Shown one piece after another: positions 3,227 to 61,745 of a DNA stretch of 64,000 nt. Under the pieces are notes generated by a model, which ran no database searches, had not been told where the DNA came from, and saw only the letters and a program-made list of their open reading frames with translations. The DNA is from a virus (taxonomy: Duplodnaviria; Caudoviricetes), in the IMG/VR virus record IMGVR_UViG_3300001598_000002, positions 51,864-115,863 of that record; one strand, written 5' to 3'. The number at the start of each line of letters is the position of its first letter. Within the stretch, counting starts at the first letter, position 1. Position numbers and translations under genes: made by a program.

Positions 3227-4169
3227 CCATTGCGGCGGCACTCTCTCTACTGATGAATTTGCTCAAACTCATTCTCCATTTTATTTAGATGGATATTTAC
3301 CTATTTGTAATGGATGCATCAATCAAATTCTTCAAGATAATGATTATAGTTGGGATATTATTGATAGGCTGTGTCAGTATGCTGGAATTCCATTTATTGT
3401 AAAAGAATGGACTCGATTAGAAGAAATGAACGGGCAAGCAAAAACATGGAATGTTTATTCAAAAGTTTTTGCTCAAGATATTTATGAAGAGTTCGGTTGG
3501 AGTGATTATAATAAACAATATATTAAATTACGACAGGCTGGATTATTAGAAGAAGAAATTCCATTAGTTAATGAATTTCATTTGCGCGAACTCCGTAAAA
3601 AATGGGGTGGCAATTATGATGAAGAAGCACTTAATTATCTTGAAGATTTATATAAAGGATTATTATTAACTCAAAATGTCAATGGCGCACTTCAAATCGA
3701 TCAAGCACAAAAGATTTGTAAGTTATCATTTGAGATTGATAGTAGAATTCGTTCTGGAGATAAAGATGTTGATAAATTTTTATCGTCATATGATAAATTA
3801 GTAAAGACAGCCGAGTTTACTCCAAAGAATACAAAAAATGCGGTTGACTTTGATAGTTTTGCTGAAGTTGGGCATTGGCTTGAGAAGAGAGGACGTCAAA
3901 ATAAATTCTATGATGGCGCCACTCGCGATGTAATTGATGAAACAATTAAGAATGTAGAAAATTATAATCAACGACTTTATATTAATGAAGGCGGTATTGG
4001 TGATGAAATTACCCAAAGATTAAATGCGCTTAAAAATGCAAACGAAGCTGAACAAAGCATTTATGGATTAGAAGAAAATTATAATTTAGATGAATATGAT
4101 AATGCAGGCTTCAATTTTGAAGTAACTGATGAATTTATCGCGGAGGAAGGCACCAATGGAGACGAATAA
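3159..4169 (+). CDS. Zn-finger protein preceding terminase (candidate terminase small subunit or packaging accessory); true start may be ATT at 3174
   Basis: CNHC...CNGC motif. Lies immediately upstream of, and overlaps, the large terminase. Confidence 0.6.
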   Translation: MEVIIIPIVPKIPQKQFLTKKCNHCGGTLSTDEFAQTHSPFYLDGYLPICNGCINQILQDNDYSWDIIDRLCQYAGIPFIVKEWTRLEEMNGQAKTWNVYSKVFAQDIYEEFGWSDYNKQYIKLRQAGLLEEEIPLVNEFHLRELRKKWGGNYDEEALNYLEDLYKGLLLTQNVNGALQIDQAQKICKLSFEIDSRIRSGDKDVDKFLSSYDKLVKTAEFTPKNTKNAVDFDSFAEVGHWLEKRGRQNKFYDGATRDVIDETIKNVENYNQRLYINEGGIGDEITQRLNALKNANEAEQSIYGLEENYNLDEYDNAGFNFEVTDEFIAEEGTNGDE

Positions 4170-5979
4170 ATTTGCTCACGCCGCGCCAGACGTCATCAAA
4201 TTACGTGATCCAGACGATTCCACTTTTAATCAGCATGAACGTATTTATCGTGATGGTATTGAATTAGATAAAGGAACCGTAATTACAGAACAATGGCTTC
4301 AAAAAAATGAAGAACTTTTATACGATTGCTGGAACATTTATACTGTTTATCCAGATATTTATTTAGACTTAATTAAACCAGTCGAATCTAATTTTAATTT
4401 ATTCCCATATCAAAGAATGTTTTTACGTGTATGCATGAGATATACTCATATTTATATTACTGCTGCACGTGCAACATCGAAAACCTTTTTGTCAATTCTT
4501 GCCAAATATCTTCAATGTGTATTTTTACCTGGACATGTAGGTTCTATTGTTGCGCCAAACAAATCTCAGGCTGCGAAAATTACTAAACAAAAAGTTCAAG
4601 AGATTTGGCGCATTTGGCCGTTGCTTAAAAATGAACTTGAATTATATAATGGTGAACCGCATGCAAATTTTGGTAAAGATTATACAGAATTATATTTTAA
4701 GAATGGCAGCAAATTAAGTGTAGTTGGTGCATTAGACTCTGATCGTGGTATTCGTACTCATGCTACTTTAATTGATGAAGCACGTGATCAAGATGGCGAT
4801 GCAATTGCGGAAATTATTCTTCCACAGATGAACGTTTCACGCCGTACAGCAAATGGCCTAGTCAATAATAAAGAAGCAATTAATACTCAAGTAATCTATG
4901 CCACTTCTGCTGGAATGAAGTCTTCATTTGCTTATGAGGCTTTATTAGATTATTTTGAAGAGTCTATTCTTGACCCTTCTCGTGCCTTTACAATGGGGCT
5001 TGATTATCGTATTCCTATGATGCATGGTTTGATTGATGCGGCGCACGTCAAAAATTTAAAGATGTCGCCTTCTTATAATGAACAAACTTTTGCAAGTGAG
5101 TATATGGGTACATGGCTTGGCGGAAGTGAAGAATCTTGGTTTGATTTTGAAAAAATTTCAAAATATAGAAAAATTAAAAATCCAGAATGGTCTCAAAAAT
5201 TTAGAGGGGACACAAATATTTTCTACTTAATATCAGTGGACGTCGGAAGACTTTCAGACCAAACTGTTGCATGTATTTGGCGAATCAATATTCGAGACAA
5301 TAAATATTATTCTACCTTAGTAAATATTTTTGTTCTTGGGCGTCAAGCTGAAACCAAAACCTTTGTACAACAGTCAATTGATTTAAAGCGATTAATTGAA
5401 CAATTTAATCCGCGCGAAGTAGTTATTGACTGTAATGGTTTAGGTATTGGTTTAGCAGATGAAATGATTCGTACTCAAACTGATGAAATTGGAAATACTT
5501 ATCCCGCTTATGGATTTTTTAATAATGAAGATTATAAGAAAATCCAACCTAAAGATGCAGCATGCATCTTATATTCAATGAAAGCAAACGGGCCTTTAAA
5601 TTCAAAGATCCATAGTAATGCATATACTCGTTTAAATAGTGGCATGATTAGATTTTTGATTACTGAACAAGAAGCACGTTCTGCTTTGCTTGCAACAAAA
5701 GTTGGCGCGAAAATGTCTTTTGAAAAACGTGTTAAGCGTTTAATGCCCCACGAACTTACAACCAAACTATTTGAAGAAATGGCAAATTTACGTTTAAAAA
5801 GAAGTGGAATGGATATTGTTCTTGAACAGATTAATTCTCGTTTCCCTAAAGATAAATATTCTGCATTTGCATATGGCCAATGGAGAATTAAGGAATTAGA
5901 AGAAGAAGCTTATCAAAAACAAAAACGGCGTTCCATTATTGGCGGTCGTAAATTAGTGTTCTTCTCAGGAGGAGTATAA
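4156..5979 (+). CDS. terL: Terminase large subunit
   Basis: Q motif LFPYQ, Walker A AARATSKT, Walker B TLIDE, ATS coupling motif, nuclease ISVDVG...KDKYSA. RBS GGAGG precedes ATG 4156. Confidence 0.92.
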   Translation: METNKFAHAAPDVIKLRDPDDSTFNQHERIYRDGIELDKGTVITEQWLQKNEELLYDCWNIYTVYPDIYLDLIKPVESNFNLFPYQRMFLRVCMRYTHIYITAARATSKTFLSILAKYLQCVFLPGHVGSIVAPNKSQAAKITKQKVQEIWRIWPLLKNELELYNGEPHANFGKDYTELYFKNGSKLSVVGALDSDRGIRTHATLIDEARDQDGDAIAEIILPQMNVSRRTANGLVNNKEAINTQVIYATSAGMKSSFAYEALLDYFEESILDPSRAFTMGLDYRIPMMHGLIDAAHVKNLKMSPSYNEQTFASEYMGTWLGGSEESWFDFEKISKYRKIKNPEWSQKFRGDTNIFYLISVDVGRLSDQTVACIWRINIRDNKYYSTLVNIFVLGRQAETKTFVQQSIDLKRLIEQFNPREVVIDCNGLGIGLADEMIRTQTDEIGNTYPAYGFFNNEDYKKIQPKDAACILYSMKANGPLNSKIHSNAYTRLNSGMIRFLITEQEARSALLATKVGAKMSFEKRVKRLMPHELTTKLFEEMANLRLKRSGMDIVLEQINSRFPKDKYSAFAYGQWRIKELEEEAYQKQKRRSIIGGRKLVFFSGGV

Positions 5980-35625: not shown

Positions 35626-37179
35626 ATGGCTGAAAGGACTCGGTTAGATTTTACAGGGCCAGAGATTGATGATATTCTTGAAGGTATTGAGTCTCATGTG
35701 TCTTTTGCAATTGAACAAGAAACTGATGCCACACAAAAGGCACGAGCGCGAACTAACATCGGCGCGCAAGGCGAAGTTGATGCTGTTGAGACAGTAGAAC
35801 AAGATCGTACTGATGCAGAAAGGACACGCGCACGAACTAATATTGGCGCAGTTGCACCAGATGCCATTAATGAAGTGGCACAAACCAGCAGGGAGTTAGA
35901 TAATACATTAAATAATAAAATTGATTTTACTCAAGCACAGGAATTAAGTGCCGAGCAACATCGACAAGTTCAAGAGAATTTGGGGTTAAATATTAAAGAG
36001 AAGACTTCTAAAATGATTTTACCAGTAGGTAGAGATAGTAGTGGTAAGCTTTGGACTTATGATATGTCTAAACCATTAAACCCAGATACATGGGAAGATG
36101 TTGGTAAGATTCTTGAGAGAGGTCTGGCATCAGAATATTGGGAACCTGGTGACCAGTTAAAAGTAAAGAAGACTATTGGTTCTACTACTGAGGAATTAAT
36201 TTTTGATATTCTTGGATTTGATTATGATACACCTATTGATGCGAATATTAAGCACACGATGAGCCTGGCAATGCATAGCGTCTATAGTTATAATGAAATT
36301 CCTTTTGACCCGGTAGAAGCTACTTTCTATTTTGCAAATGGGTTGCCTGCAGGCACCTATACCTATAAGTATAATGGTACTGACTATTCCTTTACGTTAA
36401 CAACTGGATGGAGTCCCAATACGCAAGTTACTGGTTCTACTGCTCAGTTGACACCTTATATTAAAGGCGCACTTAATGCTTCTGGCGAAGAAACGCCAAC
36501 CGCGGCTGCGGGTACAGAAGGAACTTCTTTAGGTACTGCTGTAAATAATACTGGTAGTTCTACAACTCTTACAATTAATGGTGTTAATTATCCTGTCGAA
36601 ATGAATGCATGTTATAGAGTCTCTTATGGGTCAAATAGATGGGAAACTTCAAGTGATCGTCAATACTTAAATAGTAATGCTGCGGGCGCTGCTTCTGGTC
36701 AGATTGCTAGTTGGTGGACACCTCAAACTGGATTTGATAGACCCACTAAATCCACTAAACCAGGTTTCCTTTATGGTATTGAACAAGGATTTTTAGATTT
36801 ACTTGTAGATGTAAAGAAAAGAACTCGTTTATTTAATGCGGGTGATGTTACTGGAACATATAAAGATAGTGACGAAAAGGTATTTTTCCTTTCACAGACA
36901 GAAGTCAATTTAAATATGGAAGGTAATGTAAGAGAGAATTCATTTGGTACTGACAGAACTTTTACAAATGTACTTACTACACCTTACCCTTTATATGTCG
37001 GAGCTGGAAATGCTGATAGAATTAAGTACCAAGGATCTACTGCAAGATATTGGTGGCTTCGTGGTCCTTATCCGTCTAGCGCTCGCACTGTTCGTGGTGT
37101 CAATACGGATGGTAGTTTGGGCAGCGGCTATGCCAGCGGTTCCGGTGGCGTTGTCCCGGCCCTGTGCGTAGGACGCTAA
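35626..37179 (+). CDS. DGR target protein 1 (receptor-binding; C-terminal C-type-lectin-like/DUF6273-type domain carrying VR1)
   Basis: Ends YWWLRGP...GGVVPALCVG. The 3' end matches the TR. N-terminal Q..ARTNIGA repeats. Confidence 0.88.
   Translation: MAERTRLDFTGPEIDDILEGIESHVSFAIEQETDATQKARARTNIGAQGEVDAVETVEQDRTDAERTRARTNIGAVAPDAINEVAQTSRELDNTLNNKIDFTQAQELSAEQHRQVQENLGLNIKEKTSKMILPVGRDSSGKLWTYDMSKPLNPDTWEDVGKILERGLASEYWEPGDQLKVKKTIGSTTEELIFDILGFDYDTPIDANIKHTMSLAMHSVYSYNEIPFDPVEATFYFANGLPAGTYTYKYNGTDYSFTLTTGWSPNTQVTGSTAQLTPYIKGALNASGEETPTAAAGTEGTSLGTAVNNTGSSTTLTINGVNYPVEMNACYRVSYGSNRWETSSDRQYLNSNAAGAASGQIASWWTPQTGFDRPTKSTKPGFLYGIEQGFLDLLVDVKKRTRLFNAGDVTGTYKDSDEKVFFLSQTEVNLNMEGNVRENSFGTDRTFTNVLTTPYPLYVGAGNADRIKYQGSTARYWWLRGPYPSSARTVRGVNTDGSLGSGYASGSGGVVPALCVGR
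37063..37159 (+). repeat. DGR variable repeat VR1
   Basis: 97 nt, 89/97 identical to the repeat at 40086-40182. Confidence 0.92.
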
Positions 37180-37309
37180 TGTTAATGAGTTCGCTTTAAA
37201 ATTTCGCTTTATCACTAAAATCACCAAAAATTTTGAGGAGTCTTTTTACTTCTCTACTTAATAATAGAACGGGTAAAGACTCCTCTAATTCTTATATAGG
37301 AGGCATATA

Positions 37310-39127
37310 ATGGCAGAATATGTATTAGCCATGACCGGTGAAGCAGTTAATGCCGCACTTACTAAGGCACAAACTGACGTTTCATTTAGTCAAGCGCAGT
37401 CATTAACCGATGCGCAAAAAGCAATTGCACGAAATAATATCGGTGCAATGGAAACTAAATCAGTTGTTGAATATACTACTCAATCCTTAAACGATCAGCA
37501 AAAACAAGTTGCTCGTCAAAATATTGGTGCAGGCAGTGCAACAGACGTTACTACTCTTGGCACCACAGTAAGTAATCTTCAAACCGCTTCTGGTCATAAA
37601 CTTGATTATACACAAACACAGACTTTAACGGATGCTCAAAAAACTCAAACTCGTCAGAATATTGGACTAAATCCAGTTGCTTCTGATGTATCTATGACAA
37701 TGCCAGTTGGTATTGATGCCAATGGACAATTATGGGCAGAATCTCTTGAAGAACCAGATATTACGAATTGGGCACAAGTCGCACAAATTATTAAGTCTGG
37801 CGCAGCATCCAAATTTTTTGAAGCAGGTGATCAGTTTGTTGTTAACAAGGCAACTTCTGTAACTGCTGCAGTTAAGGGTAATATTACTGGCGCGACAGTA
37901 AGTCTACCAACATTTATTACTCAAATGAATGAAGCTGAAGCTAAGTCTTATACTTTTTCATTTATTAATGGTCAATGGGTTTATAATGGTAATGCAGTTA
38001 TATTAAGTGATTACGGTATTACTGTTACTGGTACTCCTGCAAGTTTAGATACAATTGTTATTACAGAAACAATTGAAAAAATTACTTTTGACGTATTAGA
38101 TTTTGATTATGATACACCTGTCACCGAAGGAATTAATCATACAATGAGTTTGCTTGCTCATGATGTATATAGTTATAGCGAAATTCCTTTTGATGCAAGT
38201 GAAGCATTATTTTATGTAGATCCAGAAACTTATCCAAGTGGATTACCAGTTGGAACTTATCATGTAACACTTGACCATGGTACATATGGTGAGAGCACTG
38301 CTCAAGATGGTACATATCAATTTACTACAACTCAAATTGTTCCTGCTGGCGGATTAATTCGTCATACTACGATGGGTGTTTATCAATCTAGCAGTTATAC
38401 AAAGGCACAGATTACTGGCGGTAAATTTGTTACTTATAATACTGAATATACTCAACTTGAATCGTTAACTACTACAGAAGGTTCTGGCGGTACTTCATTA
38501 GGCACGACTACTGCGCGTAGGCAATCTTATCGTACTAATGAATTATTGAATTTTACCGAAAGGAATGCTTATGGTTCCAATAACTGGTTAAATTCAAGCG
38601 ATCGTCAGTATTTGAATTCTGACGCGGCTGGTGCTGCATCTGGCGCAATTGCAAGTTGGTGGACTTCTAAAAATATTTGGGATATGCCAGTTAAGTCTAC
38701 TAAACCTGGTTTCTTATATGGCTTAGATCCATCTTTCCGTGCAATTCTTCAAACTGTTAAAAAGAGAAATAGATTAACACTTGCAGATTATGGTAGTAGT
38801 TCTGTTAAGCATATTGATAATGATGAAAGAGTTTTCTTTGTATCTCAAACAGAAGTTAATTTAACTCGCGAAGATAGTGTATATGAGAACTCTTTTGGAA
38901 CTGATAAGACATTTACTACTATTAAGACTACTCCTTATGCACTTTATGCATCTGCTGGAAACGCTGATAGAATTAAGTATCAGAATGGAACGGCTCGTTA
39001 TTGGTGGCCTCGTGGTCCTCGTCCGTCTTACGCTGGCCGTGTTCGTCTTGTATATACGGATGGTAGTTTGGACTACAACAATGCCAGCGATTCCAGTGGC
39101 GTTGTCCCGGCCCTGTGCGTAGGATAA
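37310..39127 (+). CDS. DGR target protein 2 (paralogue of target 1, carrying VR2)
   Basis: Same C-terminal domain (SSDRQYLNS.AAGAASG.IASWWT, KSTKPGFLYG). Three QSLTDAQK..RQNIG repeats. Confidence 0.88.
   Translation: MAEYVLAMTGEAVNAALTKAQTDVSFSQAQSLTDAQKAIARNNIGAMETKSVVEYTTQSLNDQQKQVARQNIGAGSATDVTTLGTTVSNLQTASGHKLDYTQTQTLTDAQKTQTRQNIGLNPVASDVSMTMPVGIDANGQLWAESLEEPDITNWAQVAQIIKSGAASKFFEAGDQFVVNKATSVTAAVKGNITGATVSLPTFITQMNEAEAKSYTFSFINGQWVYNGNAVILSDYGITVTGTPASLDTIVITETIEKITFDVLDFDYDTPVTEGINHTMSLLAHDVYSYSEIPFDASEALFYVDPETYPSGLPVGTYHVTLDHGTYGESTAQDGTYQFTTTQIVPAGGLIRHTTMGVYQSSSYTKAQITGGKFVTYNTEYTQLESLTTTEGSGGTSLGTTTARRQSYRTNELLNFTERNAYGSNNWLNSSDRQYLNSDAAGAASGAIASWWTSKNIWDMPVKSTKPGFLYGLDPSFRAILQTVKKRNRLTLADYGSSSVKHIDNDERVFFVSQTEVNLTREDSVYENSFGTDKTFTTIKTTPYALYASAGNADRIKYQNGTARYWWPRGPRPSYAGRVRLVYTDGSLDYNNASDSSGVVPALCVG
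39014..39110 (+). repeat. DGR variable repeat VR2
   Basis: 97 nt, 78/97 identical to the repeat at 40086-40182. Confidence 0.92.
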
Positions 39128-39164
39128 GTTCGCTTGATAAGTTTGCTTTAAAATTTCGCTTAGT

Positions 39165-39650
39165 ATGGAGGAATTACAAATGATTTATATTTCCCAAAAA
39201 GAAAAAATCCGTAGCCTCCAACGTGAAAATGAGGCTCTCCGTGCCAAAGCTACTGACACGGAGTTAGCCTCCAATATTACATTTGTTACTCTTGCAGAAA
39301 ATGGCGCGATTGATGAAGTCACGGCTACAGAACACTTAAGTGTATTTGCTGCTTGGGAACCAGGTGTAGCATATTCCGTTGGTATGCTTCGTAAATATGA
39401 AGATGTTTTATATAAATGTGTTCAAGCACACACTTCACAGATTGATTGGTCACCAGATAAAACCCCTGCATTATGGGCGAAAGCCGGTGATCCTGCGGTT
39501 GAATATCCTGAATGGTCTCAACCTATTGGCGCACAAGATGCTTACATGACCGGAGATAAAGTGTCTCATTCCAACAAGCATTGGGTATCTACTGTTGATA
39601 ATAACGTGTGGGAACCTGGTGTTTATGGATGGGAAGAAGTAACTGAATGA
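39165..39650 (+). CDS. Carbohydrate-binding module protein (CBM5/12, ChiC-BD-like)
   Basis: AWEPGVAYSVG...YKCVQAHTSQ.DW.P...PALW and AY..GDKVSH..KHWVS..DNNVWEPGVYGW. Confidence 0.8.
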   Translation: MEELQMIYISQKEKIRSLQRENEALRAKATDTELASNITFVTLAENGAIDEVTATEHLSVFAAWEPGVAYSVGMLRKYEDVLYKCVQAHTSQIDWSPDKTPALWAKAGDPAVEYPEWSQPIGAQDAYMTGDKVSHSNKHWVSTVDNNVWEPGVYGWEEVTE

Positions 39651-40063
39651 GCGTCCGTTCTGGAGATCGCTCCCAAGGTCATGTACAAGTTTTAAATTCA
39701 ATGCGCATATTGGAAGAATATACATTTCAAATTTGCATGAATGAAAATATTTTTCCTAATGAAATTGGTTTAGTATTTGCTTTGCAAATATTAGATAAAT
39801 GTTTGGATGCTGGTGCGGAGTTAGCAGATGCTTTTCATACAAATCCAATCTTGCCGGACGATTTGCTTACAAGGCGGGCGCACCAGACCGAATGTCATTC
39901 ACACCTAAATTCTTTACTTCATTTAATCGAAAATGCTTGGAAAGCATGCCATATTCCGTCACGGCGGATCGAATATTGGACCGGTTTGGTTGTTGTAACC
40001 GAGAAGAATTTAGATGTTTGGATAGCTTCAGACTTAAGGCGATATAGACGCCTAACAAAATAA
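39647..40063 (+). CDS. avd: DGR accessory variability determinant (Avd-like four-helix bundle)
   Basis: 138 aa directly upstream of TR and RT. MSV...YT..IC.NE..FP and RR..Q...IEYWTGLV...W..SD..RY pattern of Bacillota Avd proteins. Confidence 0.8.
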   Translation: MSVRSGDRSQGHVQVLNSMRILEEYTFQICMNENIFPNEIGLVFALQILDKCLDAGAELADAFHTNPILPDDLLTRRAHQTECHSHLNSLLHLIENAWKACHIPSRRIEYWTGLVVVTEKNLDVWIASDLRRYRRLTK

Positions 40064-40085
40064 TAAGTCTTCAGATATTTACTAC

Positions 40086-40182
40086 GGTCCTAATCCGTCT
40101 TACGCTCGCAATGTTCGTAGTATCGGTACGGATGGTAGTTTGGGCAGCGGCTATGCCAGCGGTTCCGGTGGCGTTGTCCCGG
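40086..40182 (+). repeat. DGR template repeat (TR), positionally canonical but adenine-depleted
   Basis: Non-coding copy between avd and RT. Diverges from the VRs at the 3' end (CCCGGACTGT vs CCCGGCCCTGT), as expected for IMH*/IMH. Confidence 0.88.
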
Positions 40183-40373
40183 ACTGTATATGGTAGCGGC
40201 GTAGATAAATACTCAATCGCTCCATAATACACTATATAAAACTTCTGCACAGAAACTATCTACAGAAACTACTAAAATATACAGGGAGTAAATGTCCGGC
40301 CTCCGAGTTATCCATAAAATAGGAGGGAACAGTTTAATGACGTAGTTGTCGCTTTGTAGAACTACTATTAGCA

Positions 40374-41459
40374 TTGATGTTGAGAGTTATGAAAAAGAAT
40401 GAATATTTTGATGATGCAATCTCATTTGAGAATTTATATAGTGGATTAAGGAAAAGTTGCCGCAATGTTCGGTGGAAAGATAGCGTCGTTACTTATGAAT
40501 TTAACGGCCTAAAGAACACCTATAACTTGCGGCAACATTTTTTAGATGAAACCTATGAGATTAGTCCATATCATGAATTTATAATTTATGAACCTAAAAT
40601 AAGAGAGATTGTTGCTACTCGTATTCGAGATAGACAATTTCAGCGTTCATTATGCGATAATGGATTATATGTAGATTTAACGGAATCTTTTATTAAAGAG
40701 AATCCTGCTTGCCAGCGTGGTAAAGGTAATGATTGTGCATTAGATTGCTTGACACAAAACTTATGTAAATATTATCGTGAACATGGTAATATTGGTTGGT
40801 TTTTAAAGTGTGATATTCATCATTATTTTCCATCAACAGACCATGAAATTGCATCAAAAGCAATTCATAAGCGTACTACTGATTCAAGGGCGGCCGCGGC
40901 TGTAGATCAGATTATTGATTCTTTTGGTCATGATGGTGTTGGTATTGGCCTGGGTAGTCAAGTTAGTCAATTAATTGAACTTTGCATTTTAGATGATTTA
41001 GATCATTTTATTAAAGAAAAACTTCATATCCATTATTATGTTCGATATATGGATGATTTTGTATTAATTGATCCAGATAAACAAAAACTTGAATGGTGTT
41101 GGAAACAAATTGAACTCTTTTTAAAGGATTATAAACTTGAATTAAATGAAAAAACTACATTACAACCATTGAGTTCCGGAATTCGATTCTTAAAATGGCG
41201 TTTTGTATTAACTGAAACTGGTCGCGTCTTACGCTTAATGGACTATAACAAAGTTACCGTTGAAAAGCAAAAGCTTCAAAAACTTTGGGCAAGAGAGCAA
41301 GAAGGTACTGTACCAGTTGGCGCGACAGAGGGAAGTCTTGATTCATGGATCGCTAATGCAGACCGCGGCGATACATTTGCATATAAAAAAGAGTTGGTTA
41401 CATTTTACTGTCGTCTTACAAATCGACAATATAAATATAAGAAGAAAAAGAAAGGATAG
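40374..41459 (+). CDS. DGR reverse transcriptase
   Basis: LKCDIHHYFPS, GIGLGSQVSQ (the DGR-type GxxxSQ motif) and YVRYMDDF. Start may be ATG 40377 or 40389. Confidence 0.95.
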   Translation: MMLRVMKKNEYFDDAISFENLYSGLRKSCRNVRWKDSVVTYEFNGLKNTYNLRQHFLDETYEISPYHEFIIYEPKIREIVATRIRDRQFQRSLCDNGLYVDLTESFIKENPACQRGKGNDCALDCLTQNLCKYYREHGNIGWFLKCDIHHYFPSTDHEIASKAIHKRTTDSRAAAAVDQIIDSFGHDGVGIGLGSQVSQLIELCILDDLDHFIKEKLHIHYYVRYMDDFVLIDPDKQKLEWCWKQIELFLKDYKLELNEKTTLQPLSSGIRFLKWRFVLTETGRVLRLMDYNKVTVEKQKLQKLWAREQEGTVPVGATEGSLDSWIANADRGDTFAYKKELVTFYCRLTNRQYKYKKKKKG

Positions 41460-41479
41460 GTATTATAACCTATCCTTTT
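41451..41479. terminator. Bidirectional terminator at the convergence of the two genome arms
   Basis: AAAGGATAGGT-attata-ACCTATCCTTT, flanked by A and T tracts. Confidence 0.85.
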
Positions 41480-41481
41480 AT

Positions 41482-41865
41482 TTATTCAGTAATAAACGGG
41501 AAAAGTAGATCAAATTCTTCAATAGATAACTCTAATTTATCTAATTCTTCAAGAGTAAAACTTACATCTGGAACATCTACATCTAAATTCCATAATTCAT
41601 TACATTTTTCTTGAACTAAATCAATATATTCTTTTTGTAACTGAACTCCAGTCCCATTATCAATCATCTTCGGCGCGCCTGTCTCATCACGTTCTGCATA
41701 TTCCATAATTAACTTATTTAATTCTTCACTATAAAATCGTGCTTCTTTATCAAGAACATTAAATAATTTACTAAATTTATATGCAGTTTTAACTGGAAGA
41801 ACCTGCGCCTTAACTTTTTGATAGATTGGATTAAGGTTCAATACTTTTGCCATTTTAATTTGCAT
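41482..41865 (-). CDS. Hypothetical protein
   Basis: 127-aa acidic helical ORF coupled to the upstream resolvase gene. Confidence 0.75.
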   Translation of the reverse strand: MQIKMAKVLNLNPIYQKVKAQVLPVKTAYKFSKLFNVLDKEARFYSEELNKLIMEYAERDETGAPKMIDNGTGVQLQKEYIDLVQEKCNELWNLDVDVPDVSFTLEELDKLELSIEEFDLLFPFITE

Positions 41866-41869
41866 TTCC

Positions 41870-42589
41870 TTACTCCCAATTTACAATTTCAGTTTTCTTT
41901 TTATGTGTGTCAGAAACATATTTTCCAATACCAACAGCATCCGCAATATCATCACTAACACTTACATCATACCATTCTTTTACAAGTAATTGCATTGATT
42001 TTTTACGATCTGCTCTTGCCTTCCCCTTAACTCCACAGTGCGCGCGCCATGTATTTGTTGGACAAATAATATACGGAATATTTAATTCAATACATAAATC
42101 CATTAAAATACCTTGTAAACGTGCGAGTGTTTGGAATGTTGTAACACCCATATTCTGTTGAAATTGAATACCTTCAATTCCTACAATATCTGGCTTCCAA
42201 TTATTAATCATAGAAATTAGCCAAATTCGGATCTCATGAAAACGTTTTCCTTCGTCTTCACCTTCTACTACAAATGTTCCATAAGTAGTTAATTGATTCC
42301 CATCAAAAATACTGTATCCAGTAGTATATGATGCTTGATCTAAAGCCAGAATACGATTTTCACCTTTTGGTTTGGGTTTAATGATATTCAAATTTTGCTT
42401 AAACTGGTTTTGTTTGCATACAGGACATTCGCGCTTGGTGCGCAGATGCGCCCAATTGGCATATACTAAATGACCTTCTGGGCATTGAAACTGCATCTGC
42501 GCATCTAAATTTTGATAGTCTGTAGATACAACTTTCCAATTATCTTGCGCGAGTTCCTGCACGATATCCTCTAATTTTATTCGTGCCAT
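41870..42589 (-). CDS. ruvC: RuvC-like Holliday junction resolvase with N-terminal Zn ribbon
   Basis: ILALDQAS..TGYS, GIEG and DDIADAVGIG catalytic motifs. CPEGH...CPVC at the N-terminus. Confidence 0.82.
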   Translation of the reverse strand: MARIKLEDIVQELAQDNWKVVSTDYQNLDAQMQFQCPEGHLVYANWAHLRTKRECPVCKQNQFKQNLNIIKPKPKGENRILALDQASYTTGYSIFDGNQLTTYGTFVVEGEDEGKRFHEIRIWLISMINNWKPDIVGIEGIQFQQNMGVTTFQTLARLQGILMDLCIELNIPYIICPTNTWRAHCGVKGKARADRKKSMQLLVKEWYDVSVSDDIADAVGIGKYVSDTHKKKTEIVNWE

Positions 42590-42607
42590 TCACTCACTTT
42601 CCATTAA

Positions 42608-43507
42608 TTATTTTAAGCCAGTACTTCCAAAACCACCATTACGATTGTCTCCAATTTCTTGGACGCTATCGACGCGATAAAATGCGACTTTTGGAACTTC
42701 ACAAAGCACTAACTGACAAAACTTTTCGCCCTTACCAATAGTAAAATCACGACCATACTCAATAGAAGTAATTTCCATATGGTCTATGAAACCATTCTCT
42801 TTCATAATTGTATTAGTTGTAATATCTCGAATAGGCGGTTCCACATTTTCAATAATTACTTTGATTTCATCGCGATAAGCCTGATCAATTGTGCCAGGAG
42901 TATTAGCCACTCTAAGCTTGGTCTTTAAGGCGCGGCCGCTCTTGGGACGTACTTGAAGTTCAAATCCTACTGGTAATGCAACCTTAATTCCAGTTGGAAC
43001 AAGAACCGTTTCACCTGGATGTACTGTAATATCATCAAGTGCATAAACATCCATTCCGCTATCACTAATATGGGCATACTGCGGAATTTTTGCATCAGGA
43101 TGACAAAGTTCAATAGCAACAGGCACATTTCGTTTAGCAATACCTTCAGTATCATTAATACAATTAACGATAGACGCAAGCATTTCCTTTAAGAAATCGC
43201 GTTTAGGTTTAGAAAGATTTGTCTTATCTACTTCATCACTAAGAGTTAAAAACGCTTCTGTGACATCTTCTGCTTTACCACCAGTTGCATTAAGGGCTTG
43301 GACAAGTGCAATTTTATCATTTGGATTGTTTAGAGACTGCTGATAGGATTGCATGATACCCGGCGCCAAAATCTCAAATTGGTCTTCTGGTACGCTTAAA
43401 AGACGAATAACTGAATCCATTAAATCATTGGCTTTAGTGTCATCTCCAACCACATTTTTCATTGTAGTAGTTAATTCATGAAGTTGATTCTTTGTAATAT
43501 CTGCCAT
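42608..43507 (-). CDS. dut: Trimeric dUTPase with N-terminal extension
   Basis: SGMDV, RPKSG, GTIDQAYR, KFCQL and RNGGFGSTG motifs I-V. Confidence 0.92.
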   Translation of the reverse strand: MADITKNQLHELTTTMKNVVGDDTKANDLMDSVIRLLSVPEDQFEILAPGIMQSYQQSLNNPNDKIALVQALNATGGKAEDVTEAFLTLSDEVDKTNLSKPKRDFLKEMLASIVNCINDTEGIAKRNVPVAIELCHPDAKIPQYAHISDSGMDVYALDDITVHPGETVLVPTGIKVALPVGFELQVRPKSGRALKTKLRVANTPGTIDQAYRDEIKVIIENVEPPIRDITTNTIMKENGFIDHMEITSIEYGRDFTIGKGEKFCQLVLCEVPKVAFYRVDSVQEIGDNRNGGFGSTGLK

Positions 43508-43725
43508 TAAACTAAATCCTCCCAAATGTCTCCAAAAATCTGAGTAATAGATACAATCCAGGCTTCAGCAATTATTTCGCCTTTTGCTTTTTTAGTCTTA
43601 TACTCATAACCAGCCTTCTTTACAATATATCCTTTTTGTGATGCTTCTGCGCGAAACTGTTCAATCATATCCTTTGCTGCGATTTCAGTTTCTGCACGAA
43701 ATTTACTTGTTGTTTCTAAAAGCAT
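43507..43725 (-). CDS. Hypothetical protein
   Basis: 72-aa ORF with AAGGAG RBS, coupled to its neighbours. Confidence 0.7.
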   Translation of the reverse strand: MLLETTSKFRAETEIAAKDMIEQFRAEASQKGYIVKKAGYEYKTKKAKGEIIAEAWIVSITQIFGDIWEDLV

Positions 43726-44010
43726 TTATTTATCTCCTTGGCACTCGCCAATAATATGGTTTGATGTTTCAATTACTGTATTTCCAATAGAATTGGTATC
43801 AGTACAATAAATATATGGAGTTGTATCAAACGGTTTTTCATTATAGATAATAGGCGGATAATATGGTGTGGTAATAATTGGGTTACCAGTCCACACCCTT
43901 GTCCCTTCCGCGCGACCTTCTTCATATACATCATTAATTAGTTTTTCTAATTCTTGCCTTGTAAATTCAATTTTATCATCTTTATTGGGATAAAAATATT
44001 TAATTAACAT
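43726..44010 (-). CDS. Hypothetical protein
   Basis: GGAGG RBS precedes ATG 44010. Confidence 0.6.
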   Translation of the reverse strand: MLIKYFYPNKDDKIEFTRQELEKLINDVYEEGRAEGTRVWTGNPIITTPYYPPIIYNEKPFDTTPYIYCTDTNSIGNTVIETSNHIIGECQGDK

Positions 44011-44022
44011 TATATCCTCCAA

Positions 44023-44445
44023 TTATTTTAGAACTTCTTCTTTAACAAATGAGCCATCCCAATCTGTATAATAAATTCGTTTTATACCTAAATCATGAAT
44101 AAGCGCACTACATGCTTCACAAGGCTTGGCACAACTAATTTTTCCATCTTTATGCTCTCTATAAATATATAATTCAGTTTTAGACCAGTTAATTGAATTA
44201 TTGTTGAGCAAAGGACTAAGTGCTGCAATCTCAGCATGCACCTTGGGAATACAATAAGTTCCTTCATCAAAATGACGATATTTATTATATTTATCTTGGA
44301 CTGGTGAAGTTTTCGTAGAATTACATCCAGTAGAAATTATCCTATTACCATCTACTACAACTGCGCCAATTCGTGCCTTTTTAAAATCACTTAAAAGACT
44401 TACTTCGCGCGCGATATTAAAAAAGCGTTTCTGCTTATTTGTCAT
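44023..44445 (-). CDS. Cytidine/dCMP deaminase-family Zn protein
   Basis: HAE...KPCEAC motif, IGAVVV..NRIISTGCN. Start MTNKQK follows GGGAG. Confidence 0.85.
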   Translation of the reverse strand: MTNKQKRFFNIAREVSLLSDFKKARIGAVVVDGNRIISTGCNSTKTSPVQDKYNKYRHFDEGTYCIPKVHAEIAALSPLLNNNSINWSKTELYIYREHKDGKISCAKPCEACSALIHDLGIKRIYYTDWDGSFVKEEVLK

Positions 44446-44473
44446 AAGATTACTCCCTTCATTTTCTAATATA

Positions 44474-44502
44474 ATTATATCAAAAAATGAAGGGAAAATC
44501 AA
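44474..44502 (-). promoter_or_regulatory. SigmaA-type promoter TTGATT-N17-TATAAT
   Basis: Seen on the - strand between the permease and deaminase genes. Confidence 0.7.
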
Positions 44503-44505
44503 ATT

Positions 44506-45765
44506 TTACTTATCCTTTAATACTAAATTGAGTCCAAAGCCAAGTATCATCGCAAGCGCCACACCAGTAAGAGATTCATTAAATAAAAAGATACCACTAA
44601 TTCCACTCGTTAAAATTACAGATGTAATAATTAATGTTTTATTATTATCTAAATCAATTTTATTACGAATTAGAACTTTTAGACCGCTACAAGCAATATA
44701 ACCATATAGAATTAATGCACAACCACCAAAGACACAAGAAGGAATAGTTTGGATAAAAGCACTAACTGGGCCAATAAATGAAAGAAGAATTAGCATAATA
44801 GCAGTTGTAAAACTAACCCATACTGATGCAACTCTACTAAATCCAATAGTTGCAATAGATTCACCATAAGAAGTATTAGGAAGTCCAGCAATTACAGTAC
44901 CAACTGCACTAGCAACGCCGTCACCAATAAGTGTCTTATTTAATCCTGGCTTATGAATTAAATCTTCACTAATAATATTGGATAAACATTGATGGTCAGA
45001 ATAATGTTCCATAATTGAACAAAGCGTAACTGGAATAAATAAAATAATTACTTGAAGTAAATTGGACCATGAAAAATCGTTAATATTCCATTTGAAACAA
45101 GTTAAATCTGGATACCACTGAATAGATTTAAAAGCATCAAAATTAATTAATTGCGCCCATCCAATCCAAGTTACAACTAAAGCAAGAATATAACCAACAA
45201 TTAATCCAAATAACAGTGGTATAGTCTTTTTAAATCCTTTGAAATAATGGCTACAAAGTGCTGTTACAAACATAACAATGATAGCAATTACAACTTCCCA
45301 TGTATTACTATTATGAGTATATGTCCCCATAAACATTGCCAAATTTAAACCGATTAAAATAGTAATTGAACCAACAATATAGGGTGGAAACAATTTGTTA
45401 ATTTTTTCAATTCCAAATTTTGATGCGGCCGCGCCAAATAAACAATAAATAATTGCAATAAATCCACCACCAATTGCAACCATTAAGTAGTTTTGTGGAC
45501 TTGCGCCTGGCATTGCTAATGCTCCAATAACTGCCGAACACGTCGCGCCACAACTTGAAATAAACATTGGAGATTTAAATCCCGTAATTAATTCATAAAT
45601 AATTGTTGCAATGCCTGCGCCGAGTAAACAGGAACTAATAGGTGTGCCACAAATATTTGCAATTAACACTGTTGCTACAAATACAGCCAAAAGCATTTGT
45701 AAAGTATATAAAGACCATTCTTTTAATGAATGAGGTTTTTCATTAACTTTATAAATTAAATTCAT
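44506..45765 (-). CDS. uraA: NCS2-family uracil/xanthine permease
   Basis: Many TM helices. EH..D, L.KTLIGDG and the NCS2 signature PNTSYGESIA....RVAS. Confidence 0.88.
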   Translation of the reverse strand: MNLIYKVNEKPHSLKEWSLYTLQMLLAVFVATVLIANICGTPISSCLLGAGIATIIYELITGFKSPMFISSCGATCSAVIGALAMPGASPQNYLMVAIGGGFIAIIYCLFGAAASKFGIEKINKLFPPYIVGSITILIGLNLAMFMGTYTHNSNTWEVVIAIIVMFVTALCSHYFKGFKKTIPLLFGLIVGYILALVVTWIGWAQLINFDAFKSIQWYPDLTCFKWNINDFSWSNLLQVIILFIPVTLCSIMEHYSDHQCLSNIISEDLIHKPGLNKTLIGDGVASAVGTVIAGLPNTSYGESIATIGFSRVASVWVSFTTAIMLILLSFIGPVSAFIQTIPSCVFGGCALILYGYIACSGLKVLIRNKIDLDNNKTLIITSVILTSGISGIFLFNESLTGVALAMILGFGLNLVLKDK

Positions 45766-45766
45766 T

Positions 45767-46279
45767 TTAAAACTCCTTTGCTACAGTCTTTAGTTTTTCA
45801 ATCGCATCTTCAATATTGCTAACTAACCATCCACTTTGTTTAATTAATCCAGTAACATATAGATTTTGATAACTATACTGTTGCTCTCCAAGAGATTGTG
45901 CGCCGCCCCAGTTCTTCTCTGAAGAATGGGTTAGATACATTTGTCGATTATCAGTACAAATTCCAATAATATACTTATGATCACCACGGCGAATTTTTTC
46001 TCTAACCACGCCAATTTCTGCACTTGTACCTGCTGGGACCACATCCCCATCAATACAAGCAATTAGCACATCGGTCTTATCTAAGCGTTCATTGTCACCG
46101 TTAGCAATTTCTTGAGAGCCAGCAAACTTTTTTTTGCCTTCTGACCCGTTGATTTCTGTATTTTCGATTGGGCTATATAACTCAATTCCAGGAATGGCTT
46201 CTCTTATCTTTTTTGCCCATTCAGTATTACGTAACTGGTCCCCATAGCAAAAGATGCCTCCTGCTAAATATGCTTTCAT
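45767..46279 (-). CDS. Nucleoside 2-deoxyribosyltransferase or nucleotide N-hydrolase family protein
   Basis: YLAG..F, YSP, D...DVLIAC.DG...GTSAEIG and NLYVTG. Confidence 0.82.
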   Translation of the reverse strand: MKAYLAGGIFCYGDQLRNTEWAKKIREAIPGIELYSPIENTEINGSEGKKKFAGSQEIANGDNERLDKTDVLIACIDGDVVPAGTSAEIGVVREKIRRGDHKYIIGICTDNRQMYLTHSSEKNWGGAQSLGEQQYSYQNLYVTGLIKQSGWLVSNIEDAIEKLKTVAKEF

Positions 46280-46713
46280 TTTTCCAATCCTCCATCAAAA
46301 TAATAAATAATTTTATCTAATGATTTAGCAAATTCAATTTCTTTTTTGGTAGATTCTCCAATATAATGATCGGGATTTACTATATATACAACATCTGCCA
46401 TCATAATTTTTTGACGATGAAGTTTGTCTAATTTTTCTTTTTCTTTATCAGTGATAGTATCGCCAGAATGTCCCCAAACACCAGGCATTAACACAATTGC
46501 GCCTTGTTTAGTAAATTCTCGATTCATTTGCATAAATAATTCTTTAAATCGGGTACTACCACATAGACATACAATCCAGGAATGGTCATTTACTAATTTT
46601 GCTTGTTCTTCGGTCAGATGATATTTATATCGATTCATATAATCCACAGTGACATTCTCCTTTATATCCATTTTGTACCTTCTCACGAAAATCTTTGCAC
46701 ATACATTTTGCAT
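46276..46713 (-). CDS. NDT-like Rossmannoid protein (start may be 46671 or 46638)
   Basis: CLCGSTRF...H..KI.MAD.VY.VN...YIGEST..EI.FA. Confidence 0.65.
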   Translation of the reverse strand: MQNVCAKIFVRRYKMDIKENVTVDYMNRYKYHLTEEQAKLVNDHSWIVCLCGSTRFKELFMQMNREFTKQGAIVLMPGVWGHSGDTITDKEKEKLDKLHRQKIMMADVVYIVNPDHYIGESTKKEIEFAKSLDKIIYYFDGGLEK

Positions 46714-46816
46714 CTGGAGTTTTTTCTAACGAACAAGGGCAATATCCATCGTTTTCAATCAATTGCTTTTTTGCCTCGCGCGCCAAGTCCTGATCACTAT
46801 TAATACGTATATTCAT
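46625..46816 (-). CDS. Ferredoxin:thioredoxin reductase catalytic-subunit-like protein
   Basis: GYCPC...CMC...CHCGLY matches the FTR-c CPC/CPC/CHC pattern. Confidence 0.82.
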   Translation of the reverse strand: MNIRINSDQDLAREAKKQLIENDGYCPCSLEKTPDAKCMCKDFREKVQNGYKGECHCGLYESI

Positions 46817-47342
46817 TGCAAAACTCCTTTCCATATTGATTATTACTTGCTAAATATATTCCTAAAACTTCATCAAAATGTTTTTCTTGACTTGGTCTAA
46901 AACGCCCAAACTTTACAATAATACCATATCGCTGTAAATATTGCCATTGATCTGCAAACATTTGATTATGTTCTTTTTTATAACTATATCCATAAGTTCC
47001 TTGATTTAATTCTTCTTCTGTATATCCAGTATAAATAATTACAGGATCTTTACATTTATATTGACGTCTAAAACAATCAATGAAAGGTAATAAATCAATC
47101 ATGCTGTCAAATGGTTCTAATCCAGCAAGTACGATACCTTTCGTAATTGGATTATTTATATACCGTTGAATTAAATCTTCTTTACTAATTTCAATATCTG
47201 GTTCTTTAGCAAGCGCGCTATTTTGGCATAGCGCGCAGCCATTTTCAATATCACATTTAAAGGTACATGATGGAAAGGCAATATACATTACTGGCTCTTT
47301 ATAATCAGTAAAGCATTCATCTGTAATTCCTTTAATTTTCAT
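46800..47342 (-). CDS. nrdG: Anaerobic RNR activase (radical SAM)
   Basis: CTFKC....CALCQN, GLEPF, YTGY..EE, KFGRF and LASNNQ. Confidence 0.85.
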   Translation of the reverse strand: MKIKGITDECFTDYKEPVMYIAFPSCTFKCDIENGCALCQNSALAKEPDIEISKEDLIQRYINNPITKGIVLAGLEPFDSMIDLLPFIDCFRRQYKCKDPVIIYTGYTEEELNQGTYGYSYKKEHNQMFADQWQYLQRYGIIVKFGRFRPSQEKHFDEVLGIYLASNNQYGKEFCNEYTY

Positions 47343-47559
47343 TTTTCTCTTTATCCTTTAGTCCAGCCAAATATCCATTTGTATAGCAATCATTAGCATA
47401 TTTTTGAATATTATTCCATACAGTAGGAAATAGCGCAGTTAGAATAAATTGTAATGAAATTTCTGTATCATCATCTAAATCACTCGCGCGCGATACAACT
47501 TTACGTAATTGACTTAGTGGAACAGTAGGCATTTTTTCGGTTGTTTTAATTGGATTCAT
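47332..47559 (-). CDS. Hypothetical protein
   Basis: 75-aa ORF overlapping nrdD and nrdG, with GGGAGG RBS. Confidence 0.6.
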   Translation of the reverse strand: MNPIKTTEKMPTVPLSQLRKVVSRASDLDDDTEISLQFILTALFPTVWNNIQKYANDCYTNGYLAGLKDKEKNEN

Positions 47560-60773: not shown

Positions 60774-61745
60774 TTAAAGCATGTCGCGCATATCAAGAAC
60801 TACCAAATGCATTAAATCACATTGATCTTCTGTAAATTCTGAAAGCTTCATACGATGTCCCATAGTCATCTCAATCTTCTTTAAAATCACAGAAGCATTA
60901 TCTGGATTATTTTGAGTTAATTTTTGCCATAGATCTTGGGCTTCGGTGCGAACCGTTGCAAAATCTAAATGCTCACCGATAGCAGTAAGTCCAGCATTAT
61001 CTACTACCTTTACGCCATCTTGTTTTTCAGCCATATCAATAGCCTCAGCAATTGCATCAACTAATTCTTGATAACCAAATTTAATTTTTGGCGCAAGATA
61101 TTTAAATCGAGAGCCAGCAAAAAGAGTAGGAGTTTCTCTTGTATAAAGATAGCGAGTAAAATTCTTATCTGTATCATATTCGCCACCAATATAGCCAATA
61201 ATATCTACAAGACCATTACAAATTTCACTAGCACGTTTAGGCATTTCTGGCGAAATAATTTCTACTTCACTACCATCCGCTGTTTTTTCAACACGAGCGG
61301 CGCTATGTGCAATTAAAACAATACCATAACCAAGCATAGTAATTTTTCTAAGTACGCCTTCAAATTCTTTCTTGCAAGCAGAATATCCTCCGCCCCAAGG
61401 AATGTCATTAATTTTTTGTACTCCATTTTGTGCACAAATATATTGTTCACAATAATCCCATGCAATAGAAATTGTATCAATAATAATTGTTTCATACATT
61501 TTCTGCGCTTCTGGTTTTTCTAATTGGCGTAATACCATTTTCCAATCAGCCCATTTGGTAATGTCAACGGCGCGAACACCACCAATAGCATTATACCCTC
61601 GTTCAAATGCTACTAAGAGTGAATTTGGAAAAGCACAAGCGGCAGTTGTTTTGCCGCTTTTTGGCTTTCCATAAAGAAGAACATACTTTCCTCTTAGATC
61701 ACGAGAAATAACACTTGGCTGGATACTTAAAATATCAATTGCCAT
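60774..61745 (-). CDS. AAA_24 / Sak4-like ATPase (recombination)
   Basis: YGKPKSGKTT, IIIDT and LIAH motifs, next to an SSB-like gene. Confidence 0.8.
   Translation of the reverse strand: MAIDILSIQPSVISRDLRGKYVLLYGKPKSGKTTAACAFPNSLLVAFERGYNAIGGVRAVDITKWADWKMVLRQLEKPEAQKMYETIIIDTISIAWDYCEQYICAQNGVQKINDIPWGGGYSACKKEFEGVLRKITMLGYGIVLIAHSAARVEKTADGSEVEIISPEMPKRASEICNGLVDIIGYIGGEYDTDKNFTRYLYTRETPTLFAGSRFKYLAPKIKFGYQELVDAIAEAIDMAEKQDGVKVVDNAGLTAIGEHLDFATVRTEAQDLWQKLTQNNPDNASVILKKIEMTMGHRMKLSEFTEDQCDLMHLVVLDMRDML

Follow-up and report, generated by a model that had tools for sequence, protein, structure and literature searches.

Diversity-generating retroelements (DGRs) pass sequence in one direction only, from a template that stays invariant to a target that varies. 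The DGR described here raises the question of how a template (TR) can come to differ from its own variable repeats (VRs) at sites other than its adenines, and of which copy has changed. The element lies in the window, a stretch of 64,000 nucleotides that corresponds to positions 51864-115863 of IMG/VR record IMGVR_UViG_3300001598_000002. The record is a complete phage genome of 115,863 bp with direct terminal repeats.

Results

Organisation of the DGR cassette

A complete phage DGR cassette occupies 35626-41459 on the + strand of the window. Judged from sequence, its architecture is that of a canonical member of the DGR family, with the following features.

35626..37179, + strand: DGR target gene 1, an ORF of 517 aa with a C-terminal DUF6273 domain (Pfam PF19789, E=4.7e-14)
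37063..37159, + strand: VR1 core, 97 nt, with an IMH-like flank following at 37160-37173
37310..39127, + strand: DGR target gene 2, an ORF of 605 aa with a C-terminal DUF6273 domain (Pfam PF19789, E=7.5e-12)
39014..39110, + strand: VR2 core, 97 nt, with an IMH-like flank following at 39111-39124
39165..39650, + strand: CBM5/12 carbohydrate-binding-module gene (Pfam PF02839, E=2.2e-17)
39647..40063, + strand: avd (accessory variability determinant), 138 aa (phrog_3206 'Avd protein of DGR', E=8e-8)
40086..40182, + strand: TR core, 97 nt, non-coding and eroded, between avd and RT
40183..40388, + strand: IMH*-like flank (40183-40196) and TR-RT spacer, together 206 nt
40389..41459, + strand: DGR reverse transcriptase (RT), 356 aa from ATG (Pfam RVT_1; phrog_1423, E=4e-84)

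The two target genes are tandem paralogues (repeat families D1-D6), with VR1 ending 20 nt and VR2 ending 17 nt from the respective stop codon. Pfam DUF6273 is the only fold label for the target domain, since a search of solved structures with its sequence gave no match. The CBM5/12 gene lies inside the cassette from target 2 to avd and overlaps the avd start by 4 nt; this position is kept in all relatives with enough sequence. Pfam profiles gave no match to avd. The RT reading frame is intact and includes the YMDD box, and 1308 RT homologues were retrieved at E<=1e-50. A GC-rich block of 13-14 nt is common to the TR (40169-40182) and the VRs. Past this block the VR flank CCCTGTGCGTAGGA and the TR flank ACTGTATATGGTAG diverge, and are putative IMH and IMH*-like elements. 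A GC-rich inverted repeat or hairpin was found downstream of neither VR1, VR2 nor the TR. Such a repeat 3' of the VR occurs in only 34% of DGRs and so is not strictly defining (PMC5758913).

The cassette resembles the DGR of Bordetella phage BPP-1, which also consists of a target with a C-terminal VR, avd, TR, spacer and RT (PMC3240598, PMC5703328). Both elements have A-specific differences at positions 1-2 of AAY codons, and in both a GC-rich block in TR and VR is followed by diverged IMH and IMH* flanks. Unlike BPP-1, the window has two tandem targets, a CBM5/12 gene within the cassette and no GC-rich hairpin after its VRs.

The TR and its own VRs do not follow the adenine rule

Realignment of the three 97-nt repeats reproduced all counts of a first-pass annotation of this DNA. 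There are 13 A and two AAY codons in the window TR and 15 A in VR2. Of the 8 sites at which TR and VR1 differ, 5 are TR adenines; at the other 3, which are not A in the TR, VR1 has A. TR and VR2 differ at 19 sites, 7 at TR adenines and 12 elsewhere, with A in VR2 at 9 of the 12. Codon 14 of the TR is GGT and matches neither VR (AAT and TAT). The variable sites are all at codon positions 1-2 except 40124, at codon position 3. Measured against the window's own TR, the DGR rule that TR/VR differences fall at TR adenines only is broken. The complete 115,863-bp phage genome has these three copies of the repeat and no more. Exact-pattern scans of viral and metagenome contigs gave no further TR or VR copy, but as they also missed the JGI contig of a near relative (L085), they say nothing about absence.

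How unusual this is can be judged from a survey of 58 homologous DGR loci with TR/VR pairs. The survey loci were fetched from IMG/VR via RT homology (at most 59% identity), and, as their TRs cannot be aligned with that of the window, they were used for this purpose alone. With the exception of L006 and L078, each TR/VR pair has 0-2 non-A mismatches, and the VR has A opposite a TR non-A at no more than one site; the TR/VR pairs of L078 are confounded by repeats. The window pattern is a clear outlier among the surveyed loci, far from what chance would give. In L006 (55% RT identity), comparison of 4713-4841 with 4099-4227 gives 19 TR/VR mismatches at A sites and 12 at non-A sites. Unlike in the window, its VR has A at only 1 of the 12 non-A sites, and these mismatches may reflect drift or misaligned flanks.

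The TR changed after both VRs had been written

No close relative of the phage was found in the phage GenBank collection. Relatives were instead located through the RT (a 90%-identity cluster of 12 sequences) and through an identical Avd protein (18 contigs). The avd-TR-RT region was available in relatives from 14 other samples (L084-L087, L089, L090, L096-L099, L102, L103, L105 and L106), whose RTs are about 97-99% identical to that of the window. L091, with an RT 71% identical, served as the outgroup. Twelve of the 14 relatives are identical in their TR core, the canonical one, which contains 29 A and 13 AAY codons; that of L086 differs from it by one C>T, a non-adenine change. The remaining relative, L106 (ENA ERZ27313626, 1954-2088), has a canonical TR apart from one A>T in the first AAY codon (AAT>TAT, core site 6). 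VR2 of L106 has GTT at this codon, hence the TAT in its TR is no copy of its own VR2; the change may represent template erosion in its smallest form, or simply a point mutation of the usual kind.

The outgroup TR keeps all 29 adenines. Since the 14 relatives and an outgroup with 71% RT identity are all A-rich, the AAY-rich TR is the ancestral state. The reverse polarity, with the window TR as the ancestral state, was considered and is ruled out by the A-rich outgroup. The first-pass annotation had postulated an ancestral AAY-rich TR and offered a 36-nt string for it; that string is the exact start of the TR core in the 14 relatives and the outgroup. The window TR differs from the canonical TR at 18 of 97 core sites, and 17 of these are canonical adenines (Fisher p=2.1e-10), as expected from the annotation's further claim that the TR was overwritten by mutagenised sequence. 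The changes at adenines comprise 14 A>G, 2 A>T and 1 A>C; the remaining change is a G>A at 40122. Invariance of the TR between strains is a feature of DGRs, BPP-1 included, that is broken by these 17 A-to-N changes relative to 14 sister assemblies.

Outside the TR there is little change. The surrounding avd, spacer and RT DNA is 96.5-99.5% identical to that of the relatives. The 206-nt flank and spacer differ at a single site, 40335, where the window has T and all nine readable relatives have C (ten were compared, L098 being shifted by an indel). At 40073, 13 nt upstream of the TR core, the window alone has a G>A change, with G in all ten relatives compared. The RT has three unique substitutions (L51F, A254E and E315G), and there are no other window-only changes nearby. 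Elsewhere in the cassette, target 1 outside its VR (35626-37040) is about 92.6-92.9% identical to L084 and L086; in the same comparison, target 2 is 95-96.6%, avd together with the CBM gene 98-99% and the RT 96.5-97.6% identical.

The VRs follow the canonical TR rather than the present one. VR1 differs from the canonical TR at 18 sites, all 18 at TR adenines, and VR2 at 16 sites, 15 of them at adenines. Both VRs keep A where the window TR now has G or T. Because the A-to-N rule fits the canonical and not the present TR, VR1 and VR2 were written before the TR changed. This supports the earlier suggestion that VR2 preserves the older state.

In the DGR family of the relatives, each VR carries 15-21 adenine changes and 0-1 other change. 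The window TR, with 17 of 29 adenines changed and one other change, has a normal single-VR load, so one full-length event could explain the whole TR. The share of A>G is 14/17 in the window TR, compared with 49% in the VRs of the relatives. The substitutions common to TR and VR1 are also G-biased (14 of 17-18 are A>G), and they encode a Gly/Ser-rich motif. Very probably, the element's own RT produced adenine-mutagenised sequence that ended up in the TR.

The two halves of the eroded TR differ in their relation to VR1

The eroded TR is divided into two segments by its relation to VR1.

40127..40182, + strand: 3' segment of the TR, 56 nt identical to VR1 37104-37159
40101..40126, + strand: 5' changed segment of the TR, with 6 A>N and 1 G>A

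The 3' segment agrees with VR1 at 17 of 17 canonical-adenine sites, comprising 11 common A>N changes and 6 retained A. The chance of such identity under independent mutagenesis is about 10^-8.4. Adenines that are normally mutable were left unchanged in this half (40128, 40146, 40153 and 40158), which favours a faithful rather than a mutagenic transfer; a mutagenic copy of the 3' half has a relative likelihood of about 0.01-0.12. The first-pass annotation held that the 3' part of VR1 was recopied after the TR had changed. The 56-nt identity fits this proposal, with the amendment that copying, if from the TR, was probably faithful and not mutagenic.

The 5' segment looks like an independent mutagenised copy. 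It has three substitutions in common with VR1 and two with VR2, and for an independent copy the probability of three or more shared substitutions is P = 0.19. GG at 40125-40126 and A at 40122 are absent from both VRs. Recombination with the VRs of this genome could not have produced the 5' half, as it matches neither VR and both predate the change. Two simpler origins were also rejected. A simple VR1/VR2 mosaic is ruled out by the same GG and A, and the first-pass annotation had correctly dismissed it on the ground that codon 14, GGT, occurs in neither VR. A copy of the present VR1 over the whole TR is ruled out by the 8 differences, at 3 of which VR1 has the ancestral A. All changes in the TR stop short of the 14-nt invariant block at 40169-40182, and the IMH* flank is untouched. 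The sequence comparisons thus show a TR that changed after VR1 and VR2 were written and a tract that was then shared faithfully by TR and VR1.

Proposed route of mutagenised sequence into the TR

What we infer is the route, the order of its two steps and the enzymes. The route that we favour, at somewhat better than even probability, is entry of mutagenised cDNA into the TR followed by faithful gene conversion between TR and VR1. In the first step, a full-length mutagenised cDNA made from the ancestral AAY-rich TR would integrate in the TR and not in a VR, changing 17 of 29 adenines in one event. This step is favoured because it accounts for a mutation load typical of one event and for a 5' half that is unique. 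In the second step, TR and VR1 would become identical over their 3' 56 nt through faithful gene conversion. States written from the old template would persist in VR2 and in the 5' half of VR1. The favoured route needs two events and leaves the G-heavy spectrum (14/17) unexplained.

Entry of the cDNA could have occurred in two ways. It may have been off-target self-retrohoming at the common GC-rich block and IMH*, through leaky recognition of IMH*, or IMH-independent annealing aided by phage recombination proteins. In BPP-1, replacing IMH* with IMH makes the TR variable. IMH* of BPP-1 is reported to keep the TR from being a recipient (PMC4891356, PMC3240598, PMC5703328), and cDNA integration in BPP-1 starts at the block corresponding to 40169-40182 (PMC3240598). 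No change in the IMH* flank sets the window apart from relatives with intact TRs. This speaks against the favoured route, since the flank does not account for the TR having become a recipient.

With regard to IMH-independent annealing, the phage genome yielded a single recombination-mediator candidate, a Sak4-like AAA_24 protein (61104-61688, - strand, E=1e-44). A RuvC-like Holliday-junction resolvase (41870-42589, - strand) adjoins the RT. Searches of the phage genome for the RecT, ERF and RecA families found none. The Sak4-like AAA_24 and RuvC-like proteins are candidate helpers in IMH-independent recombination of cDNA or repeats.

The same two proteins are also available to a purely recombinational origin, which is a serious but less probable account. 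According to this explanation, homologous recombination or gene conversion placed normally mutagenised VR sequences in the TR, and no cDNA entered it directly. The donor of the 3' half would be VR1 of this genome, and that of the 5' half would be the VR of a sibling genome copy within the cell or of a co-infecting strain. Such an origin readily accounts for a 3' 56 nt that is a perfect copy of VR1, unmutated adenines included, and experiments have shown that TR and VR can recombine independently of the RT (bioRxiv 10.1101/2025.03.24.644984). However, the canonical TR and the VRs are exactly identical over at most 15-16 nt, and the right-hand crossover would be confined to the 14-nt block. The 5' half matches no VR here and would require an unseen donor, and the resemblance of the load (17/29 adenines) to that of a single cDNA would be a coincidence.

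It is improbable that DGR events alone produced the TR in a stepwise ratchet. Self-homing would have introduced the 14 substitutions common with VR1, a mutagenic rewrite of VR1 would have added four, and a second self-homing would have added T at 40101 and GG at 40125-40126 to the TR. Every site is then explained by A-to-N changes plus one G>A, and repeated hits would suggest a predisposition, for which the window-only SNPs at 40073 and 40335 are candidates. Three events are needed, though, and two of them would have a low load (4/15 and 3/15 adenines) compared with about 60% in VRs of the family. The VR1 rewrite would also have to leave every mutable adenine of the 3' half unchanged. Entry of cDNA followed by faithful conversion remains the preferred reading.

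The eroded TR is very probably a real sequence

A further explanation is that the real TR is canonical and that VR1-derived reads were collapsed or chimerically joined at the TR, so that the eroded TR is an artefact of assembly or library construction. TR and VRs are repeats, VRs can vary within a population, and the eroded TR occurs in one sample only. The first-pass annotation had itself named a consensus artefact as the result that would overturn its proposal. An independent de Bruijn assembly gives the same sequence. The same RT protein is found on a Logan contig from SRR1221442, and two Logan contigs from this run are 100% identical to the window, L095 over 37130-40156 and L092 over 40153-47459. 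Each Logan contig is a path through exact 31-mers that occur two or more times, and no consensus step is involved (PMC12424806). Exact k-mers chain the eroded TR up to 40156 to avd, and from 40153 they chain it to the TR-specific flank and the RT.

L095 and L092 each end exactly 30 nt (k-1) within the 56-nt TR/VR1 block. Contig ends at k-1 inside the block, on both sides, are the signature of a true exact repeat. In samples with a canonical TR, the Logan contigs pass straight across the TR. The longest exact identity of the canonical TR with any VR is 15-16 nt, below 17 nt, so no path in a k=31 graph could make the eroded join. Moreover, the 5' half of the TR is unique and present in neither VR. 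The exact-k-mer re-assembly, anchored on both sides, makes an artefact very unlikely. The eroded TR is known from one strain, through the IMG/VR record and SRR1221442, which are possibly one read set; if SRR1221442 holds the IMG/VR reads, the support is independent of the assembler and not of the reads. A minority canonical TR may co-exist in the sample, as Minia pops bubbles.

Least probable of all is a decayed pseudo-template with ordinary mutations, with a functional TR elsewhere (for example in the host) acting in trans, the latter being the alternative offered by the first-pass annotation. In its favour, drift is the usual interpretation of non-A-to-N mismatches in inactive DGRs (PMC3521204), and avd-TR-RT can act in trans under experimental conditions (PMC5758913). 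Against it, 17 of 18 changes at adenines (p=2e-10) with nearly unchanged flanks are not drift, the complete phage genome holds no other TR copy, the avd-TR-spacer-RT position is the same as in all relatives, and neither RT nor avd is damaged.

Discussion

The change in the template has a large predicted effect on the output of the element. The TR now has 2 AAY codons where it had 13, and 13 adenines where it had 29, and the theoretical amino-acid repertoire has shrunk from about 1.3e17 to 5.9e7. By this reckoning, most of the power to vary both target proteins is gone from the window TR. With an undamaged RT and Avd, the element probably retains activity, though the range of its output would be far more limited. 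On any further homing, both targets would take on the fixed Gly/Ser/Tyr-rich state of the TR, and the process would work as a ratchet.

An experimental parallel is provided by DGRec, in which mutagenised cDNA overwrites the template locus with A-specific changes (bioRxiv 10.1101/2025.03.24.644984). When integration is IMH-independent, self-overwriting of the dgrRNA locus is about as frequent as overwriting of the target (bioRxiv 10.1101/2025.03.24.644984). DGRec is an artificial system that combines the BPP-1 RT and Avd with the RecT recombinase in E. coli and has no IMH requirement, whereas the case described here is natural and comes from a phage that has IMH/IMH* differentiation and lacks RecT. 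In the literature searched, mostly outside subscription journals and therefore a weak basis, no description was found of a natural TR with the footprint of its own A-mutagenesis.

Surveys have reported non-A-to-N TR/VR mismatches in 23-46% of DGRs and ascribed them to RT infidelity, integration errors, and drift or independent mutation (PMC5758913, PMC6642488). As in the window, non-A mismatches occur in the surveyed DGRs alongside a full-length RT (Wu et al. 2018; Yan et al. 2019, PMC6642488). The highest non-A-to-N count for one target was 11 in the survey of Wu et al. 2018 (PMC5758913), compared with 12 for VR2 of the window, and in the present case comparison with sister strains places the changes in the TR. 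The favoured class of non-A-to-N mismatch in the survey was TR G opposite VR A (PMC6642488).

Natural loss of diversification has been described for inactivated DGRs with a broken RT and intact TR/VR (Schillinger et al. 2012, PMC3521204). The window likewise represents a natural route to such loss, but here the damaged part is the template, with RT and avd undamaged. Two relatives provide the contrast. The RT of L086 (6001-7071) has TGG>TGA at codon 320 (W320*), with a loss of 37 residues and a near-canonical template, and the RT of L099 (922-1709) has a frameshift after about codon 123 and a canonical TR. From their reading frames, both are cases of the classical decay route through RT breakage.

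We tentatively propose, as a generalisation that we hold at rather less than even probability, that retrohoming of DGRs into their own template occurs naturally, though rarely, with irreversible loss of adenines, either as a self-limiting ratchet or as a 'template update'. In a template update, if it occurs, a used variant would be written in, fixing a successful binding site and narrowing diversification to the remaining adenines. If such self-retrohoming takes place, DGRs in general would have a means of decay or tuning that has so far gone unnoticed, and part of the non-A-to-N mismatches in surveys would be explained.

The locus is a clean natural counter-example to the invariant template, with known polarity. 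It implies that the directionality of IMH and IMH* can leak in nature, or that recombination can bypass it. RT infidelity or drift should not be the default reading of TR/VR mismatches at non-adenine sites, and a practical rule for DGR-detection tools is to polarise mismatches with sister strains. Erosion of the template is a route to lost or narrowed diversification that is distinct from breakage of the RT.
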